Shown: positions 1,067-41,403 of the stretch, in pieces
Numbering within the stretch: position 1 is the first letter of the stretch
How the letters are laid out: each line of letters opens with the position of its first letter
Origin: an uncultured Pseudomonadota bacterium
Lineage (GTDB): Bacteria > Pseudomonadota > Alphaproteobacteria > Rs-D84
Assembly: GCA_902799285.1 (NCBI GenBank)
Contig: CADCAA010000004.1
Span: forward strand, 1 to 41,403
DNA length: 41,403 bases
Reading direction: 5' to 3'
Made by a program: the position numbers and the translations under genes
The notes under the pieces: model-generated
Told to the model about the DNA's origin: nothing
The model's database searches: none
What the model saw: only the letters and a program-made list of their open reading frames with translations

Positions 1067-1182
1067 ATCAGCAATTACCATTATTTCCGGTTGATTTAAC
1101 AAAACCAATATTGGATGTGCTATATAACCCGCGCCGGGCGATTGCACGACGCAAAAAAACAGTTTGCCAATGCGGTCGTTAG
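1063..1182 (+). CDS. Small hypothetical protein (39 aa)
   Basis: ATGA overlap, GGGGGG RBS; MNQQLPLFPVDLTKP... Confidence 0.45.
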   Translation: MNQQLPLFPVDLTKPILDVLYNPRRAIARRKKTVCQCGR

Positions 1183-1321
1183 CATTGGCGGTATAATCGG
1201 CATTCTTTGTCTAAATCGTGAAAAATCCCTCCGAATATGCCGATTATATGGGGGCAAACATTGATACCCCCACCAATATGTCCGTGCGGATGGCTAGTAG
1301 TCCCCACGGACTCCCAGTTCC

Positions 1322-1419
1322 GGGGACTGTGCCGCAGATGGTTAGCGGGCCGGTGCAGAAAGGCGTAATTTTCACATGCACCGGCAGTCGTGGGTTCGAT
1401 TCCCACCAGTCCCCCGCCA
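1322..1419 (+). ncRNA. tRNA-like RNA with elongated anticodon arm
   Basis: Acceptor GGGGACTG/CAGTCCCC, D arm CCGC-AGATGGTTA-GCGG, T arm GTGGG-TTCGATT-CCCAC, 3' GCCA; anticodon arm is 35 nt instead of 17. Confidence 0.8.
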
Positions 1420-1517
1420 AGTTTTGGGTTGCACCTAGAAGAAACCATTGAAGAAAGGTGCATAAATGGTTGGTTTCCGCCCCGCCGGTGGGTGTCCCAA
1501 AAAAACCGGCAAATTAT

Positions 1518-1574
1518 GCGGGGGCAATGGTTGATACTTGCAACTGCCGGTTTTAATCATTGCCGCCCGCGCCA
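1518..1574 (+). ncRNA. Long hairpin ending in GCCA (acceptor/minihelix-like)
   Basis: GCGGG-GGCAATGGTTGA pairs with TTAATCATTGCC-(G bulge)-CCCGC, followed directly by GCCA. Confidence 0.55.
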
Positions 1575-1591
1575 AAACAACAGGGTCAAAT

Positions 1592-1906
1592 ATGATAATA
1601 CAACAACAATCTTTGATGCATAATCCGTTTGGATTGATCGGTGCATGTATGGCACACAGTCGTGGCATTTACGCAGCATGGACTGCACATAAAAGCAAAC
1701 ATAATCTTGCGATTGTATATAGCATTTTGAAAACAGATTATGGGTTATCTATTAAATCCCGGTGTCCGGAAACCGCAGCACAAATGGAACGAGATATTAA
1801 GGAAATTATTGCGCATTGCATGCCAGATACCGAATATGAAATTGAACAAGAATGTGAATACGTCCGTGTTTACAAATTACCAAGATTATCAAAGGACACA
1901 AAATGA
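1592..1906 (+). CDS. Hypothetical protein
   Basis: ATG at 1592 after AGGGT RBS; stop overlaps next start. Confidence 0.65.
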   Translation: MIIQQQSLMHNPFGLIGACMAHSRGIYAAWTAHKSKHNLAIVYSILKTDYGLSIKSRCPETAAQMERDIKEIIAHCMPDTEYEIEQECEYVRVYKLPRLSKDTK

Positions 1907-2298
1907 CAAGGATTAACGTTATTCCCGTCAGCGAATTGTCTGATCAGCACCTTATCGCCGAATACCGTGAATTGCCACGTGTGCTGAAACAAAACATCAA
2001 TATCACGGATGCGCCGCATGTGTATTGCCTGGGGCATGGCCACATGAAATGGGCAAAACGGCACAGCATATTTACCGCCCGCCGGTATGGTCAATTATTG
2101 CGCGAAATGCATCACCGCGGATTCAAAACCAATTTTACGGATTCCGGGCCGGAATTATTCACAGCACAAATGCGCGATTATGATTATGACCCAACGGGTC
2201 CGGACATCGAATTAAACCGCCAGCGCATTCGTGAAAAATTTAACATGAAACCGGATTGGTACCGCTGGACCAACCGCACAAAACCAAATTGGTTATAA
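1903..2298 (+). CDS. denV: Pyrimidine-dimer DNA glycosylase (T4 endonuclease V family)
   Basis: N-terminus MTRINVIPVSELSDQHLIAEYRELPRV, plus LGHGHM and W-Y-R C-terminal motifs typical of DenV. Confidence 0.9.
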   Translation: MTRINVIPVSELSDQHLIAEYRELPRVLKQNINITDAPHVYCLGHGHMKWAKRHSIFTARRYGQLLREMHHRGFKTNFTDSGPELFTAQMRDYDYDPTGPDIELNRQRIREKFNMKPDWYRWTNRTKPNWL

Positions 2299-4028: not shown

Positions 4029-4241
4029 ATGAAACTAACAGAAATAAATAACACCCAACATTATTGTACGGTTCGTTTTGATAAACAAACACCTGAACAC
4101 ATTGCGGTTCAAATTGGTATTGCCAACAACGGCACTATTGCTATTTGGAACAATCAAGATGGCGACCAAATAAATATACCGTTTAAGGATTTGGGTATTA
4201 AATACATTGTATTTGAAAAAGCAGAACAAAAGGATAAGTGA
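4029..4241 (+). CDS. Hypothetical protein (70 aa)
   Basis: Starts at junction ATG (MKLTEIN), ends AEQKDK. Confidence 0.7.
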   Translation: MKLTEINNTQHYCTVRFDKQTPEHIAVQIGIANNGTIAIWNNQDGDQINIPFKDLGIKYIVFEKAEQKDK

Positions 4242-4387
4242 TGTTTGGGGCGTTTTCAAAAAAACAAATAGGGCAGGTTGAAACAGTTGGCGATAGCAGG
4301 GGTCAGGTATTTAGAAAATTGGTGCAAAAAGGACTTGACCCAAACCAGTTTGAAATTCGTGAGTTGTTAGAACAAAAGGATAAGTAA
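4241..4387 (+). CDS. Small hypothetical protein (48 aa, not in ORF track)
   Basis: TGATG overlap; MFGAFSKKQ...LLEQKDK. Confidence 0.65.
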   Translation: MFGAFSKKQIGQVETVGDSRGQVFRKLVQKGLDPNQFEIRELLEQKDK

Positions 4388-5306: not shown

Positions 5307-5641
5307 AAACATTACATCTGGTTCTTAAAAGTAAATGGTATGACAAAATCGCCAGTGGCGAAAAGACATCGGAATATCGCGCATGCACACCGTATTGGAA
5401 CAAACGGTTATCGTATCTGTGCCGCGATGGCGCACACGGCGCAGACGATTATGCCAGATACAGCAATTATGATGGGTGGGATTTTACACCATATTGCGAA
5501 TATTCTCGCGTATGTTTTCATCGTGGTTATACAAATCAAACAATGGTTTTTGAAATAAACAAGGTCTTAATAACAACAGAACCCAACGACTTGGGGTTGG
5601 ACAAATGCTGGGAAATTAAATTGGGCAAACGATTGGCTTGA
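5303..5641 (+). CDS. ASCH domain protein
   Basis: MKTLHLVLKSKWYDKIASGEKTSEYR...PYWNKRL...FHRGY is the ASCH signature. Confidence 0.85.
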   Translation: MKTLHLVLKSKWYDKIASGEKTSEYRACTPYWNKRLSYLCRDGAHGADDYARYSNYDGWDFTPYCEYSRVCFHRGYTNQTMVFEINKVLITTEPNDLGLDKCWEIKLGKRLA

Positions 5642-5667: not shown

Positions 5668-5928
5668 ATGACAAAACTTGAACATAAATTGACAAGAATG
5701 GCCAGCGCAAATGGTTATTCACCATCAGATACCGAATTGTATTCGGCATCTGGTCATCTTGTCCGGTTTTTGCGTGCTGTGACCGTATTAAAGAAAGAAC
5801 ATGACGACAAATTGCGTAATTTTGGCCCGGATCAGTTCCGAGAAACAAGACAAAGAATATTCGCTGCCGGCGCAGGTATCACGCCTGTCCGACTATGCGG
5901 CACGCCGGCAAATGACCGTATTGCGTGA
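5668..5928 (+). CDS. Hypothetical protein overlapping integrase start (possible directionality factor)
   Basis: AAAGGTGG RBS before ATG 5668; long overlap with integrase lowers confidence; function inferred from position only. Confidence 0.35.
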   Translation: MTKLEHKLTRMASANGYSPSDTELYSASGHLVRFLRAVTVLKKEHDDKLRNFGPDQFRETRQRIFAAGAGITPVRLCGTPANDRIA

Positions 5929-7348
5929 ATTTGTTTTAGTCGAATCATCCACAACCGGTGACCGTAAAAAATTCCTTGAATGTTTAAATTATTGCGTAGC
6001 AAATCGCGCCGCATTATTGATTGATACAATTGATCGCGCCCAGCGGTCTTTTATGGAAATACCGCTTTTAGAAAAATACCGCCGTTCTGGGCAATTGGAA
6101 ATCCATTTTTGCCGTGAAAACATTGTTATAAATGCCGAAAGTTCCGGCACTGAAATCATTATGTGGCACCAGGGTGTTTTAATGGCGGAATCATACAGTT
6201 TGCATTTCAAAGAAAATGTTAAACGGTCCATTTCGGTAAAGGTTGCCCGGGGCGAATATCCGGGTCGTGGGCCTTTGGGTTATAAAAACATCCGCACCGC
6301 TCATAATCGGTCTGATATTTTGCCGGATGATAATGCGGATCTTGTGCGGCAATTATTCGTAAAATATGGCTCTGGGGACGTTTCGTTGTCCGGACTGGTT
6401 AGTTATGCCTATGATATTGGTTTGCGCACTGATACGGGCGGAAAGTTGGCAAAATCGCATATTCATAAAATAATGTCAAATCCGTTTTATTATGGTGTGG
6501 CCCGGTGGGGCAAATATACATTTCCGCATAAATATACGCCACTGATTGAAAAACCGCTTTGGGATAAATGTAATGCGCTTTTGGCGGGCAAAAATCAGCA
6601 CCCATCAACCCGGTGGGGCAGCAAGGATTATTTGTATCGCGGTTTAATTCGTGATTTTTATTCACATCGTCTGGTTACAACCGAACGCAAAAAGGATAAA
6701 TACAATTATTTGATGACATGGAATGAATCCGGGCGGCATGTGGCGGTCAATGAAGATGTGGTTACTGCCCAAATATATAAAGTGTTGAAAATGATCCAAG
6801 TGCCACGCGATGTTATTGCCGATGTGCGGGAATATCTGAAATCGGCCAAGGAAATCGAATCGGAATATGCAGCGCGTGCCATAGCAGAATTGCAAAATGA
6901 TTTGAATGTGGCGATAAAACGACAATCGGCATTGGTGAATATGTACCTGGATGGCAAAATCGCCGATGACCTGTATTCGACCAAAGATGCCGAATTAAAG
7001 GCGCAAATTGCGGAAATTCAATCAAAACTGGATGCCAATGTTTCTGCGGATTCCGGTGTAAATGATACAATTGTCCAGTTATTTACCGCGGCATCGTGTG
7101 CGGCGGATCTGTTTATAGAAAGTTCGGAAGTTGCCCCAAAACGCGAAATCATAAAATCCATCTTCCGAACTGTTGAATTAAAAGGCAAAACCCTTTGTTA
7201 TGACTTGAATTTTCCGTTCAATTTATTCATAACAAAGGGTGAAAGAACTATATGGCGCGCCCTAGCGGACGATTTCCGAACTTTGTATGCAGATGATGTG
7301 CGGAAATTTGCGGCAAATTGGAATTGGGTGGTGCCGTTGGCCGCATAA
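5801..7348 (+). CDS. Large serine recombinase (integrase)
   Basis: ARISSEKQ catalytic motif, DTIDRAQR, recombinase domain (PLGYKN, SNPFYYG, PLIEKPLW), C-terminal coiled coil. Confidence 0.95.
   Translation: MTTNCVILARISSEKQDKEYSLPAQVSRLSDYAARRQMTVLREFVLVESSTTGDRKKFLECLNYCVANRAALLIDTIDRAQRSFMEIPLLEKYRRSGQLEIHFCRENIVINAESSGTEIIMWHQGVLMAESYSLHFKENVKRSISVKVARGEYPGRGPLGYKNIRTAHNRSDILPDDNADLVRQLFVKYGSGDVSLSGLVSYAYDIGLRTDTGGKLAKSHIHKIMSNPFYYGVARWGKYTFPHKYTPLIEKPLWDKCNALLAGKNQHPSTRWGSKDYLYRGLIRDFYSHRLVTTERKKDKYNYLMTWNESGRHVAVNEDVVTAQIYKVLKMIQVPRDVIADVREYLKSAKEIESEYAARAIAELQNDLNVAIKRQSALVNMYLDGKIADDLYSTKDAELKAQIAEIQSKLDANVSADSGVNDTIVQLFTAASCAADLFIESSEVAPKREIIKSIFRTVELKGKTLCYDLNFPFNLFITKGERTIWRALADDFRTLYADDVRKFAANWNWVVPLAA
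7253..7269 (-). other. Putative attP core resembling a tRNA-Arg 3' end
   Basis: Minus strand reads TCCGCTAGGGCGCGCCA; AGGGCGCGCCA is the 3' end of argU-type tRNA-Arg; lies inside the integrase C-terminal coding region. Confidence 0.6.
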
Positions 7349-7353
7349 AAAAG

Positions 7354-7378
7354 ACCTTTCCGACACAATCGGAAAGGT
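7354..7378. terminator. Bidirectional terminator between convergent integrase and lysin
   Basis: ACCTTTCCGA-CACAA-TCGGAAAGGT, A-run on the left, T-rich on the right. Confidence 0.75.
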
Positions 7379-7442
7379 GCTTTGTGTAAAATAAATCGTA
7401 TTTTATTATCAACAAACGATTTTGTTTATATTTTAATATAAC

Positions 7443-7847
7443 CTATGAAAAGAATAACAGCAATTCTTCGGCGCGGCGTTTTGCTAAACCTTTCAAGAAT
7501 TGACCTCCGCCGGTGACCCAATCCCAATTTTTCCAAACTGCTTTCCAATCTTTGGCAATTATTGCTTTTTTCAAACTGGACCGATCAAATGCGCCTTGGC
7601 CGATATTGTATATTAAAGACCTTAATGCTTCCTGTTGGTTGGAATTTAATCCTGTGGGCAGTTTTATATTTTGTTTGATATACATGGTTAAAAATGCTTC
7701 GGCCTCGGCACGACTGATTTTATCGCCCTCGCGCACAGGTTGGCCATTTGGATATACCGTTGTACCGTATCCGATTGTCCAGACACCCGCCGGACATTTA
7801 TATGCAGTTAACCGACACCCCTCGTACTTTCTTATCAATTCGTACAT
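7443..7847 (-). CDS. Endolysin, GH24 phage lysozyme
   Basis: YEGCRLTAYKCPAGVWTIGYG...YNIG...GLAKRRAEE. Confidence 0.95.
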   Translation of the reverse strand: MYELIRKYEGCRLTAYKCPAGVWTIGYGTTVYPNGQPVREGDKISRAEAEAFLTMYIKQNIKLPTGLNSNQQEALRSLIYNIGQGAFDRSSLKKAIIAKDWKAVWKNWDWVTGGGQFLKGLAKRRAEELLLFFS

Positions 7848-8174: not shown

Positions 8175-8377
8175 CGTACTTTACTCCAAAATTGATTCAA
8201 TGGCGCAACATCCCTTTCCAGGATTTTGGTCAATTCCAATTCGGTTTCTGCCGTTCTGGTTACGCCATGTGTAATTGGTTCGGCAACATAATAAATTCGT
8301 CCAACAGAGTCGGTTATTTTATATATGCAAAAATTATAAAAGTTGCCAACACATATTGTTTTGACAAATGTCTTCAT
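8171..8377 (-). CDS. Hypothetical protein
   Basis: 68 aa, coupled to neighbours by stop/start overlaps. Confidence 0.55.
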   Translation of the reverse strand: MKTFVKTICVGNFYNFCIYKITDSVGRIYYVAEPITHGVTRTAETELELTKILERDVAPLNQFWSKVR

Positions 8378-8583
8378 TATTTTGCTTTTTTTGTTGCTTT
8401 TTCAATTTTTGCTTTGTTTTCAGCAGTATTTACAACAGACATCCAATCGCAAATTTTCACAATCCAAGCCAACCATGGACATTTTGTTTTGCCAAATGTG
8501 GCAACAAATCCGGTACATGCTGCACCAATAATACCCAAAACAGCAAAAATTTTGTCCCAGTTGGTTAAAAGCCAATTGATCAT
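8377..8583 (-). CDS. Small holin-like membrane protein
   Basis: TM segment IFAVLGIIGAACTGFVATF, basic C-terminus, lysis cassette. Confidence 0.6.
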   Translation of the reverse strand: MINWLLTNWDKIFAVLGIIGAACTGFVATFGKTKCPWLAWIVKICDWMSVVNTAENKAKIEKATKKAK

Positions 8584-8586
8584 GCT

Positions 8587-9060
8587 TTACTCCTTTGTTT
8601 GTTCGGGCAGATCAATGCCCACTTTGGTTTCGATTTGTTTTTTGAAATTCAATGTTAATAAATCAAAAATGCGTAATCCGGTGATGTCTTTCATATTTTC
8701 AAAACAAGACATAATTTCCGTACCGGCAAAGAAACTGAATATTATTCGGGCCAATTCCATATTATTGGCCCATGATGGCAAAACCCATTGTTCGCACATG
8801 TGAACCAATAATCCGGCCGCAAAATATGTGATAATTTTTGGAACCACGTGTCGCAGGTCGTTTGATGTTCTGCGTTGATTCCGATATGGTGCGGCAATAA
8901 ATCCGGTTATTGTGTCGGCGGCAATACAAATAAAAAGTCCCAGCATGGCCATTTTGACATCGCCAATAAATGACATAAATGCACCAAATGCCCCGTATGC
9001 TATTTTTGGTGCTGTCAAAGTGAATTTATACATTTTACGACCTTGGGTCTGCCTGTTCAT
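8587..9060 (-). CDS. Phage holin family protein (holin_4-like)
   Basis: DTITG..AA, K..Y, E..S..EN motifs and three hydrophobic segments; start may be 9060 or 9033. Confidence 0.8.
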   Translation of the reverse strand: MNRQTQGRKMYKFTLTAPKIAYGAFGAFMSFIGDVKMAMLGLFICIAADTITGFIAAPYRNQRRTSNDLRHVVPKIITYFAAGLLVHMCEQWVLPSWANNMELARIIFSFFAGTEIMSCFENMKDITGLRIFDLLTLNFKKQIETKVGIDLPEQTKE

Positions 9061-41170: not shown

Positions 41171-41359
41171 ATGAAAAAATTATTTTTTGTTTCATTCATT
41201 GCATCGTTTATTGGGATTGTTATTGGCGCACGCGTTTTTGCATCCGCACCACAATCATGTGTTGTTGATTCAACTTTTAACCGGGTTGAATGCTGTGCGC
41301 ATATTACCGCCGATGGTCGTTGTGCCGTTGGCCAAGATGTAACGGTGTTCAACATATAA
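41171..41359 (+). CDS. Small secreted Cys-rich protein
   Basis: AAGGAGG RBS; signal peptide MKKLFFVSFIASFIGIVIGARVFA; four Cys in the ~38-aa mature part. Confidence 0.7.
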   Translation: MKKLFFVSFIASFIGIVIGARVFASAPQSCVVDSTFNRVECCAHITADGRCAVGQDVTVFNI

Positions 41360-41403
41360 CACAGGCAGGGGGGGCTGATTTACCATGACTATTCTGGACA
41401 CTG
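41305..41403. repeat. Terminal direct repeat (circular assembly overlap), right copy
   Basis: Identical to 1-99; ORF 41171-41359 and the start of ORF 81-905 read through it. Confidence 0.95.

Follow-up and report, generated by a model that had tools for sequence, protein, structure and literature searches.

Phage genes for transfer RNA (tRNA) are usually explained in one of two ways, as codon supplements or as substitutes for tRNAs that host defences have destroyed. Our analysis concerns an element that fits neither of these ideas, in which the tRNA body is intact but a conserved, structured hairpin takes the place of the codon-reading loop. It lies at 1322–1419 on the + strand of the 41,403-nt contig CADCAA010000004.1, the whole of which we call the window (position 1 being its first letter), and our tentatively preferred interpretation is that it is a hairpin RNA scaffolded by a tRNA body, non-decoding and under selection, that belongs to a temperate rumen phage. 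A design of this kind has been made in the laboratory. In the engineered tRNA scaffold of Ponchon, Dardel and co-workers, the acceptor, T and D arms are kept while a hairpin insert takes the place of the anticodon stem-loop, and precise processing by Escherichia coli factors and a stable product are described (PMC3753655). The element likewise keeps the acceptor, T and D arms, and its hairpin continues the anticodon stem. However, that scaffold is man-made, whereas the element is natural and phage-borne, with processing and stability that are predicted, and it is distinguished by an eighth acceptor pair and a displaced CCA.

Phage genes that derive from tRNAs and do not decode are already known. 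tRNA pseudogenes and tRNA-like sequences occur in phage tRNA arrays, such as that of Xanthomonas phage XacN1 (PMC5852040). The element resembles them in being phage-encoded, tRNA-derived and non-decoding, but it stands alone in a 41-kb temperate phage, its body is intact, and its insertion has been kept, with structure-neutral changes, in three alleles. Other phage tRNAs have been proposed to evade tRNA-cleaving defences by means of altered anticodon loops (PMC10264068). Here too, a phage gene of the tRNA family has an anticodon region unlike that of the host. Those tRNAs decode, whereas the element cannot, and neither PF13166 nor PF14491 was found in the host genome bin, although the absence of two families from one bin does not exclude a system that targets tRNA. 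Unusual acceptor stems are found among tRNA-Sec, selC tRNA-Cys, allo-tRNA and tRNA-Pyl, some of which have an 8-bp stem or a G-1; as reviewed, these tRNAs keep the 7-nt anticodon loop and lengthen the anticodon stem from 5 to 6 bp only, and tRNA-Sec and allo-tRNA combine acceptor/T stems of 8/5, 8/4 or 9/3 bp with a long variable arm (PMC7609411). The element does have an 8-bp acceptor stem with a 5-bp T stem, but with its 5-nt variable region, its ordinary D arm and a 13-bp bulged arm in place of any anticodon loop, it is not of this type.

YrlA, mascRNA/menRNA and transfer-messenger RNA (tmRNA) are also non-decoding RNAs that copy part of the tRNA shape; they lack a full D arm, or have their ends placed elsewhere. 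The corresponding Rfam models gave the element 15.4 bits for YrlA (cut-off 69), 15.3 bits for mascRNA (cut-off 42.5) and 11.3 bits for permuted tmRNA (cut-off 47), with E-values of at least 4, and ARAGORN called no tmRNA. The element belongs to no curated tRNA-mimic family. Literature searches on long anticodon stems, tRNA-like phage decoys and phage tRNA introns, supplementary files aside, listed no 13-bp replacement of the anticodon arm in a phage tRNA gene.

The tRNA cloverleaf at 1322–1419 is recovered by Rfam, by the minimum free energy (MFE) fold and by our covariance model R1, as a tRNA-shaped RNA gene with a G-1 and a C-G-CCA tail. The Rfam tRNA model (RF00005) matches 1323–1414 with 48.7 bits (gathering score 29), and its fit places 25 nt as an insertion in the slot of the 7-nt anticodon loop. 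All of the structural features listed in the preliminary description, namely U8, the GG of the D arm, the T loop TTCGATT, the 5-nt variable region, the 35-nt arm, the acceptor stem of 8 bp and the C–C apposition, are present in the sequence. In standard numbering, +1 corresponds to 1323. The 5′ strand of the acceptor stem (1322–1329, comprising G-1 and positions 1–7) forms 8 bp with 1407–1414, and the eighth pair is thus G-1:C73 (G1322–C1414). Beyond it, C1321 faces C1415, which is followed by G1416 and by CCA at 1417–1419, so that the 3′ acceptor strand and its tail together span 1407–1419. The G-1:C73 pair can be formed in, and is kept by, all three alleles; the host tRNA-His has the end G-1:C73-CCA, whereas in the element C-G precedes the CCA. 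U8 is position 1330. The D arm (1332–1348), which is unchanged across the three alleles, has a 4-bp stem (1332–1335/1345–1348) and a 9-nt loop, AGATGGTTA, carrying G18 and G19. The variable region is CAGTC (1385–1389), and the T arm (1390–1406) consists of the stem GTGGG/CCCAC (1390–1394/1402–1406) and the loop TTCGATT (1395–1401).

In place of an anticodon arm stand 35 nt (1350–1384) that form an outer helix, a bulge and an inner hairpin. The outer helix has 8 bp (1350–1357/1377–1384). The 3-nt bulge lies on the 3′ strand (1374–1376); it reads ACA in the window, ATA and ACC in the two other alleles (L013 and X3, described below), and is the most variable spot of the element. The inner hairpin GAAAG-GCGTAA-TTTTC (1358–1373) is identical in all three, with a helix of 5 bp that includes one G·U (1358–1362/1369–1373) and a 6-nt loop, GCGTAA, at 1363–1368. 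A K-turn was considered and rejected, as no G·A pair follows the bulge. Relative to a normal tRNA, with 25 nt in place of 7, the insertion amounts to 18 nt, and in the fold the sequence beyond a normal 5-bp stem pairs into a further 3 + 5 bp closed by the 6-nt loop. The MFE fold of the 98 nt is the cloverleaf described above with one extra pair, G1349–C1385, at −48.3 kcal/mol (z = −3.93), and none of 200 shuffled sequences was equally stable. When the 25 inserted letters were shuffled while the 5-bp stem was held, 38 of 2000 arms were as stable (z = −2.6), which makes a chance origin of the extra pairing improbable, if not overwhelmingly so.

The tRNA core is equally complete. The canonical tertiary contacts of tRNA include U8–A14, G15–C48 and the pairing of G18/G19 with U55/C56. 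The bases for the core and elbow contacts U8–A14, G15–C48, C13–G22–G46, U54–A58 and G53–C61 are all present, as are G18/G19 and U55/C56 at the elbow, and they are intact in each of the three alleles. The element therefore has the cloverleaf and the tertiary bases of a canonical tRNA, and lacks its 5-bp anticodon stem with a 7-nt loop bearing U33 and a purine at 37. The two modes of ARAGORN disagree on the isotype, one calling Ser(AGA) and the other Leu(CAG) with a 20-nt intron, and neither name is credible. That a single element receives two different false isotypes is a caution for users of tRNA finders.

Three distinct alleles of the element are available, from the window, from the IMG/VR phage contig L013 and from the bovine-gut contig X3, and all keep the 18-nt insertion. 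The preliminary description had left room for this being a uniquely disrupted copy of an ordinary tRNA gene; instead, the insertion is shared by alleles in different phage backbones. L013 is collinear with the window, with a large terminase subunit (TerL) at 91% amino-acid identity and blastn identities of 70–87%. Two metagenome contigs carry the same element: L022 equals L013 over the 500 nt compared, and L023 has the same tRNA-like gene. The L013 element differs from that of the window at 4 of 98 positions, its C-G-CCA tail being identical. A1326G turns the acceptor pair A1326–U1410 into G·U, C1356T and G1378A together convert C1356–G1378 to U–A inside the extra part of the arm and are thus compensatory, and C1375T falls within the bulge. 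About 20 bovine and goat gut runs contain part of 1000–1800, and contigs of four of them (X2, X3, X6 and X20) were compared with the window. X3 is one Logan DNA contig spanning 1000–1800, known to us from a table that lists 20 of its 21 differences. Six of the listed differences are in the element, with none in the tail: G1349A, at tRNA position 26, is of the unpaired class; C1351T changes C1351–G1383 to U·G; A1376C lies in the bulge; T1377C breaks the helix-end pair A1357–U1377 to A·C; G1387T is in the variable region; and A1408G changes the acceptor pair U1328–A1408 to U·G. When each allele was folded, the architecture was kept in all three, with the bulge of X3 becoming a 1 × 4 internal loop.

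These ten substitutions can be sorted by their effect on the fold. Two form the compensatory pair 1356/1378, three (1326, 1351 and 1408) keep their pairs as G·U, four (1349, 1375, 1376 and 1387) are unpaired, and one (1377) breaks a pair at the end of a helix, so that nine of the ten leave the structure unaffected. Two of four random sites would be partners with a probability of 0.038. The changes cluster at the bulge and the hinge of the arm, where 1356 and 1375–1378 account for half of those seen. The element is also less divergent from L013 than its surroundings would predict: the integrase gene, which is the best conserved, differs at 13.4% of positions overall and at 63 of 195 fourfold-degenerate sites (32%), whereas the element differs at 4.1%, and four or fewer changes in 98 would have a probability of 0.002 at 13.4% divergence. 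All in all, selection on the RNA fold, the inserted helix included, is in our judgement more probable than its absence, although three alleles cannot settle the point. The preliminary description had argued for selection on the grounds that the inserted part is fully paired. The pairing is indeed kept across alleles, with a C–G to U–A change in the extra helix, but the covariation rests on three alleles, and the absence of the module from several close relatives would also fit a relic.

The family to which the element belongs is very small. R1 scored 125 bits on the window element and 124.1 bits on L013, L022 and L023, and across 22 sources its full-length, high-scoring matches were confined to these four known copies, the best ordinary matches being tRNA-Lys, tRNA-His and tRNA-Arg. 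A blastn search with 1250–1480 gave no match among 50,697 phage records, and exact-pattern scans of viral contigs matched L013 only; a looser pattern of T arm, CCA and AGTTTT retrieved seven unrelated tRNA arrays. A metagenome scan anchored on the D and T arms with a free anticodon arm found L022 and L023 only, with no ordinary tRNA sharing both arms, though such a tRNA would have been detectable. The exact 18-mer 1357–1374 occurs among viral contigs only in L013, and none of its 20 matches in the genome contigs has a tRNA context. BLAST of 1230–1440 against 256 other genomes of the host genus gave no match, BLAST of the 98 nt against 60 relatives found only T-arm stretches of ordinary tRNAs, and R1 applied to five genomes with TerL relatives found only ordinary tRNAs (Ala, Met and one not called by ARAGORN).

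Two further properties bear on whether such an RNA could read codons. From ribosome geometry, an arm about 8 bp longer than normal would be unable to set its loop on the A-site codon. We also enumerated, for the three alleles, every excision of a single block from the 35-nt arm that leaves a stem of 5 to 8 bp and a 7-nt loop, and no single excision gives all three one and the same anticodon within a canonical loop. With a 5-bp stem, the window and X3 never gain U33. Most registers switch the anticodon among the alleles (CAU/UAU/CCC or CAC/CAU/CAC), and those that are constant in all three (AGA, AAA and GAA) sit in the unchanging 5′ part of the arm; the AGA register has G32, with C33 in two of the three alleles, and the AAA and GAA registers have longer stems and no U33. 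A selenocysteine or opal-suppressor tRNA was rejected because the UCA register, which does not survive in X3, requires a stem of 8 bp and places a pyrimidine at 37, and a tRNA-Ile2, suggested by CAU and then UAU in the window and L013, was rejected because that register reads CCC in X3 and has A33. The earlier statement that the RNA could not decode in a normal A site is in line with this enumeration.

Intron-bearing precursors would be the natural way around this difficulty. Archaeal and eukaryal pre-tRNAs with introns form an intron–anticodon helix (PMC4090602), and the element resembles them in having an anticodon stem that is extended by a helix with a 3-nt bulge. ARAGORN, when introns are allowed, proposes Leu(CAG) with its 20-nt intron, and Rfam places the 25 nt as a loop insertion. 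We nevertheless regard as highly improbable the idea that part of 1355–1379 is removed and that the mature RNA decodes. Apart from the excision products, which are non-canonical or do not keep their anticodon, the element has a single 3-nt bulge, whereas a bulge-helix-bulge motif has two 3-nt bulges 4 bp apart, and a cut at the bulge by the bulge-helix-bulge rule would leave, worked out by hand, an 8-bp stem with the loop GAAAGGA. Eighteen nucleotides are far too few for a group I intron, which takes a few hundred, and no intron family was matched in an Rfam E-value scan of 1000–1800. Unlike those pre-tRNAs, the element resides in a bacterial host in which neither the tRNA-splicing endonuclease (PF01974) nor RtcB (PF01139) was found, in a 94%-complete bin that includes the phage; control genomes gave matches to both families. 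Because no conserved canonical loop arises by excision, and because no splicing endonuclease or RtcB was found, the element is neither a decoder nor an intron-bearing tRNA.

What remains is an RNA in which the tRNA body would serve to carry something else. In the scheme that we favour, the element would be transcribed along with the early rightward genes, and host tRNA enzymes would recognize the intact body and release the RNA through RNase P and 3′ trimming, as suggested by the intact acceptor/T-arm stack and elbow. The RNA would then persist in a stable form and act in trans, with the tRNA body displaying a rigid, bulged 13-bp hairpin in place of the anticodon loop. The most likely role of the hairpin, or of the whole mimic as the active part, may be the binding or titration of a protein involved in handling tRNA-like RNA. 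Such a trans-acting, protein-binding role is favoured because the signal of selection lies in the arm, with its compensatory pair and invariant distal hairpin, and because the hinge is the most variable part; the decoy suggested in the preliminary description would be one such role, but a function as a decoy or sponge is a guess. A more specific proposal, which we consider unlikely as it stands, would be that the tRNA body naturally serves to express and stabilize a bulged hairpin of 29 nt, which would bind or titrate a host or phage protein such as a defence or tRNA-handling factor. The hinge and bulge (1356 and 1375–1378) would then form a specificity determinant that an arms race diversifies, the distal hairpin and the body staying fixed. 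As for pairing partners, no complement to the arm of at least 12 nt occurs in the phage or the host, and a 14-nt same-sense match to the arm within a host gene was taken as chance. The sole RNA-library contig compared at the locus comes from a variant without the module.

Several observations weigh against a selected, scaffolded hairpin RNA. The CCA is encoded, as the preliminary description noted, but it is not in its canonical place: it lies two positions off, C73 being followed by C and G before the CCA. The host tRNA genes that we inspected end directly in N73-CCA, with one exception, and a canonical tRNA has N73-CCA right after its 7-bp acceptor stem, an arrangement absent from the element, whose ordinary 3′ maturation and charging are doubtful. 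Relative to X3, the element has 6 differences in 98 nt, whereas the flanks have 14–15 in 702 nt (Fisher p ~0.03), a mismatch that implies that the history of the module is decoupled from that of the backbone and that it moves by recombination. The low divergence from L013 could accordingly reflect recent exchange rather than constraint. Of the ten changes, eight are transitions, and with so strong a bias roughly half of all changes at paired sites would keep the pair anyway; the covariation, too, rests on three alleles. In the DNA contigs of runs X2 and X6, 1325–1500 is swapped for 52 other letters, in the RNA-library contig X20, 1277–1502 is swapped for 61 letters, and the related prophage of genome G029 has an unrelated early region without a tRNA-like gene; since these relatives do without it, the module is dispensable. 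Moreover, neither of the two tRNA-targeting defence families sought in the host bin, PF13166 (that of PrrC and RloC) and PF14491 (DUF4435, of the AriB type), was found there. For all that the structure is striking and seems to be maintained, it is confined to a tiny clade.

These points lend substance to a serious rival, which we nevertheless judge less likely, namely that the element is a relic, a former phage tRNA gene, possibly of the tRNA-Lys type, that was disabled by an 18-nt palindromic insertion in the anticodon loop and that still folds and may still be transcribed, but has no selected function and is being lost. Its main support is that the locus looks like a cut-down, rearranged piece of a tRNA operon, with the element sitting among rearranged tRNA fragments, next to a minihelix that resembles an acceptor stem closed on itself and a hairpin that switches sides between phages. 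The variable presence among close relatives, the excess of substitutions over the flanks in the comparison with X3 and the displaced CCA all agree with decay, and the phage tRNA arrays cited above (PMC5852040) include pseudogenes. On the other hand, a gene free of constraint would not be expected to have nine of ten substitutions neutral for its structure, with a compensatory pair inside the inserted helix itself, nor 4 changes at 98 sites where fourfold sites of the integrase have diverged by about 32%, nor every tertiary-contact base intact in three alleles. There is also no working copy nearby, the element being the only tRNA-like gene of the phage.

Another possibility, decidedly unlikely in our estimate, would be that the element acts in cis, as RNase P or 3′-end punctuation and a stabilizer within an early operon, separating the open reading frames (ORFs) 902–1066 and 1060–1182 from the genes from about 1592 onwards, the released RNA being inert. 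RNase P requires the acceptor and the T arm, and these are the parts that are kept best. The location in a 410-nt gap between early genes of the same strand would suit this role, as would the lack of a promoter directly upstream and of a + strand terminator directly downstream, and the RNA-library variant contig spans the small ORFs into the downstream gene, a weak hint given that DNA can occur in such libraries. Punctuation, however, needs no replacement of the arm, and yet the pairing of the arm is kept by a compensatory change and its inner hairpin is invariant; furthermore, the variants without the module retain the same flanking genes. Barely credible, finally, is a site acting at the DNA level, whether attachment site, origin or operator, whose tRNA likeness is incidental or left over from integration. 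Inverted repeats are dense in this part of the phage, which also encodes a large serine recombinase at 5801–7348. The G029 prophage (contig C3) places the attachment site near 7348–7443, 6 kb from the element, which rules out the element as attP; the likeness of host tRNAs to the element ends with the T arm; and a full cloverleaf with all tertiary bases, in which changes keep RNA pairs as G·U, points to selection on RNA rather than DNA.

If the RNA is made and stable, as the interpretation of a scaffolded hairpin supposes, phages would be using the machinery that processes and protects tRNAs as a means of delivering a small structured RNA, a trick invented independently in laboratories, and the element would provide a compact natural scaffold with a defined variable hinge. 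Should the scaffold or titration function prove true, nature would for the first time have supplied an equivalent of the laboratory tRNA scaffold, and phages a new class of accessory RNA. As a mere relic, the element would still be a clean case of tRNA gene decay in a small temperate phage in which the fold is retained.

The window is a complete genome of a temperate, myovirus-like phage, as its circular ends and its set of terminase, portal, tail and recombinase genes demonstrate. Positions 1–99 and 41305–41403 are identical (99 nt), which indicates a circular assembly of about 41.3 kb, and in the contig order of L013 the two ends of the window are contiguous. The gene set comprises a gpA-type large terminase, a lambda-type portal, a tail sheath, Mu-like baseplate proteins, a lysozyme, a Cro/CI-type regulator, a ParB-methylase, a GapR-like DNA-binding protein, a PLD-like nuclease, a DenV-type glycosylase, YopX and the large serine recombinase. 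The contig was binned with a genome of 858 kb, 94% complete and of the same G+C content, whose class II tRNA-Tyr and encoded CCA ends identify it as bacterial, and the GapR-like gene fits an alphaproteobacterial host. The assignment to this host is supported by TerL relatives, which 14 of the 256 other genomes of its genus contain; one such relative has 99% identity and another 79%. The 79% relative belongs to the G029 prophage, which is integrated and collinear with the window; it ends right after the serine-recombinase gene, abutting a host tRNA-Arg(ACG) (L025 10922–12471), so the attachment site would correspond to the recombinase/lysozyme interval at 7348–7443 rather than to the tRNA-like gene. 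Integration next to a tRNA gene is not usual for large serine recombinases. In the metagenome-assembled genome with the 99% relative (G258), the assembly breaks on both sides of the module, at the start of C37 and the end of C31, and window positions 1077–1979 are missing, as would be expected if the locus varied among the strains of that sample.

The element, the only tRNA-like gene that ARAGORN finds in the phage, sits within an early rightward run of genes on the same strand. The 410-nt gap that holds it is bordered upstream by two small ORFs that are also present in L013, a 54-aa hydrophobic protein (902–1066) whose ATG overlaps the stop of ORF 81–905 and a product of about 40 aa that begins MNQQLPLF (1060–1182), and downstream by a gene starting at about 1592. 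We found no sigma-70-like promoter directly upstream of the element and no terminator-like site on the + strand directly downstream, no relative of protein 81–905 among viral contigs, no RNA-repair or tRNA-modifying gene among the phage ORFs scanned, and no partner gene that travels with the module in the bovine-gut contigs compared over 1000–1800.

The gap also contains a series of smaller structures, here given on the + strand unless stated otherwise. At 1250–1275, a minihelix is formed by GGGGG, 12 nt and CCCCC, followed by A-CCA (G-CCA in L013), and 22 of its 26 letters are the same in L013. It is followed at 1278–1314 by hairpin X, predicted by folding to have 7 + 4 bp, which combines a copy of the acceptor 3′ strand (AGTCCCC) with a D-loop-like sequence, GGATGGCTAG. 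Hairpin X has 35 of 37 letters in common with L013 (8198–8245 of the reverse complement of L013 against window 1267–1314, at 89.6%). It lies upstream of the element in the window and downstream of it in L013, each time directly after CCCCC-R-CCA; both modules of L013 are on its minus strand, at about 5310–5470. The AGTCCCC of hairpin X could also pair with the 5′ acceptor strand of the element, giving an alternative structure. Downstream, after an AGTTTT spacer, the fold has a hairpin, TGCACC...GGTGCA, at 1430–1462, and run X2 contains a look-alike of 1419–1467 (6 of 49 letters differ) after the 3′ end of a different tRNA. Further upstream, a hairpin at 1166–1189 has a wholly different stem sequence in L013 that is still perfectly paired; with its minus-strand T-run, it is terminator-like on the minus strand. 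A 13-bp inverted repeat (1191–1203/1237–1249) is kept in L013 with changes on both arms and has TATAAT on both strands. A motif consisting of ATTAT, 1–3 nt and GGGGGCAA, with TTGATAC a few bases on, occurs twice, once where the module begins (1243–1261) and once immediately ahead of the downstream gene (1513–1531), and may be a repeated promoter- or operator-like signal.

Several of these sequences recur beside ordinary tRNA genes. The element is preceded by AGTTCC in the window and by AGTTTT in L013, and AGTTTT follows it in the window. The same AGTTTT stands directly before several host tRNA genes (G000 contigs C1, C6, C8, C24 and C32) and between the tRNAs of unrelated phage arrays (L038 9262–9350), and may be a shared leader for 5′ processing; the likeness of the 5′ flank of the element to this leader counts in favour of the scaffolded hairpin RNA. 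In G000 C32 (1–520), a host cluster of tRNA genes, Leu-Ala-Leu-Val, has near-identical hairpin spacers after each CCA (CACTTCGC...GTGTGGCAGGCC). Runs X2 and X6 have ordinary tRNA-Lys(CTT)-like 5′ halves joined to a 3′ half that resembles 1382–1425 (6 of 44 letters differ). The best ordinary matches, tRNA-Lys in phage loci and tRNA-Ala and tRNA-Met in the host genus, point to no single isotype of origin, and the alignment is not convincing because the D stems differ. Over-long tRNA-like genes occur elsewhere too, in the megaphage tRNA array of a 524-kb contig (L037, IMGVR_UViG_3300037418_001546). Among its 47 calls are three such genes of 96–121 nt (8325–8442, 8851–8971 and 4218–4313). Their acceptor and T arms are normal, but the D arm is separated from the T arm by large insertions, which ARAGORN reports as introns of 2, 26 and 45 nt.

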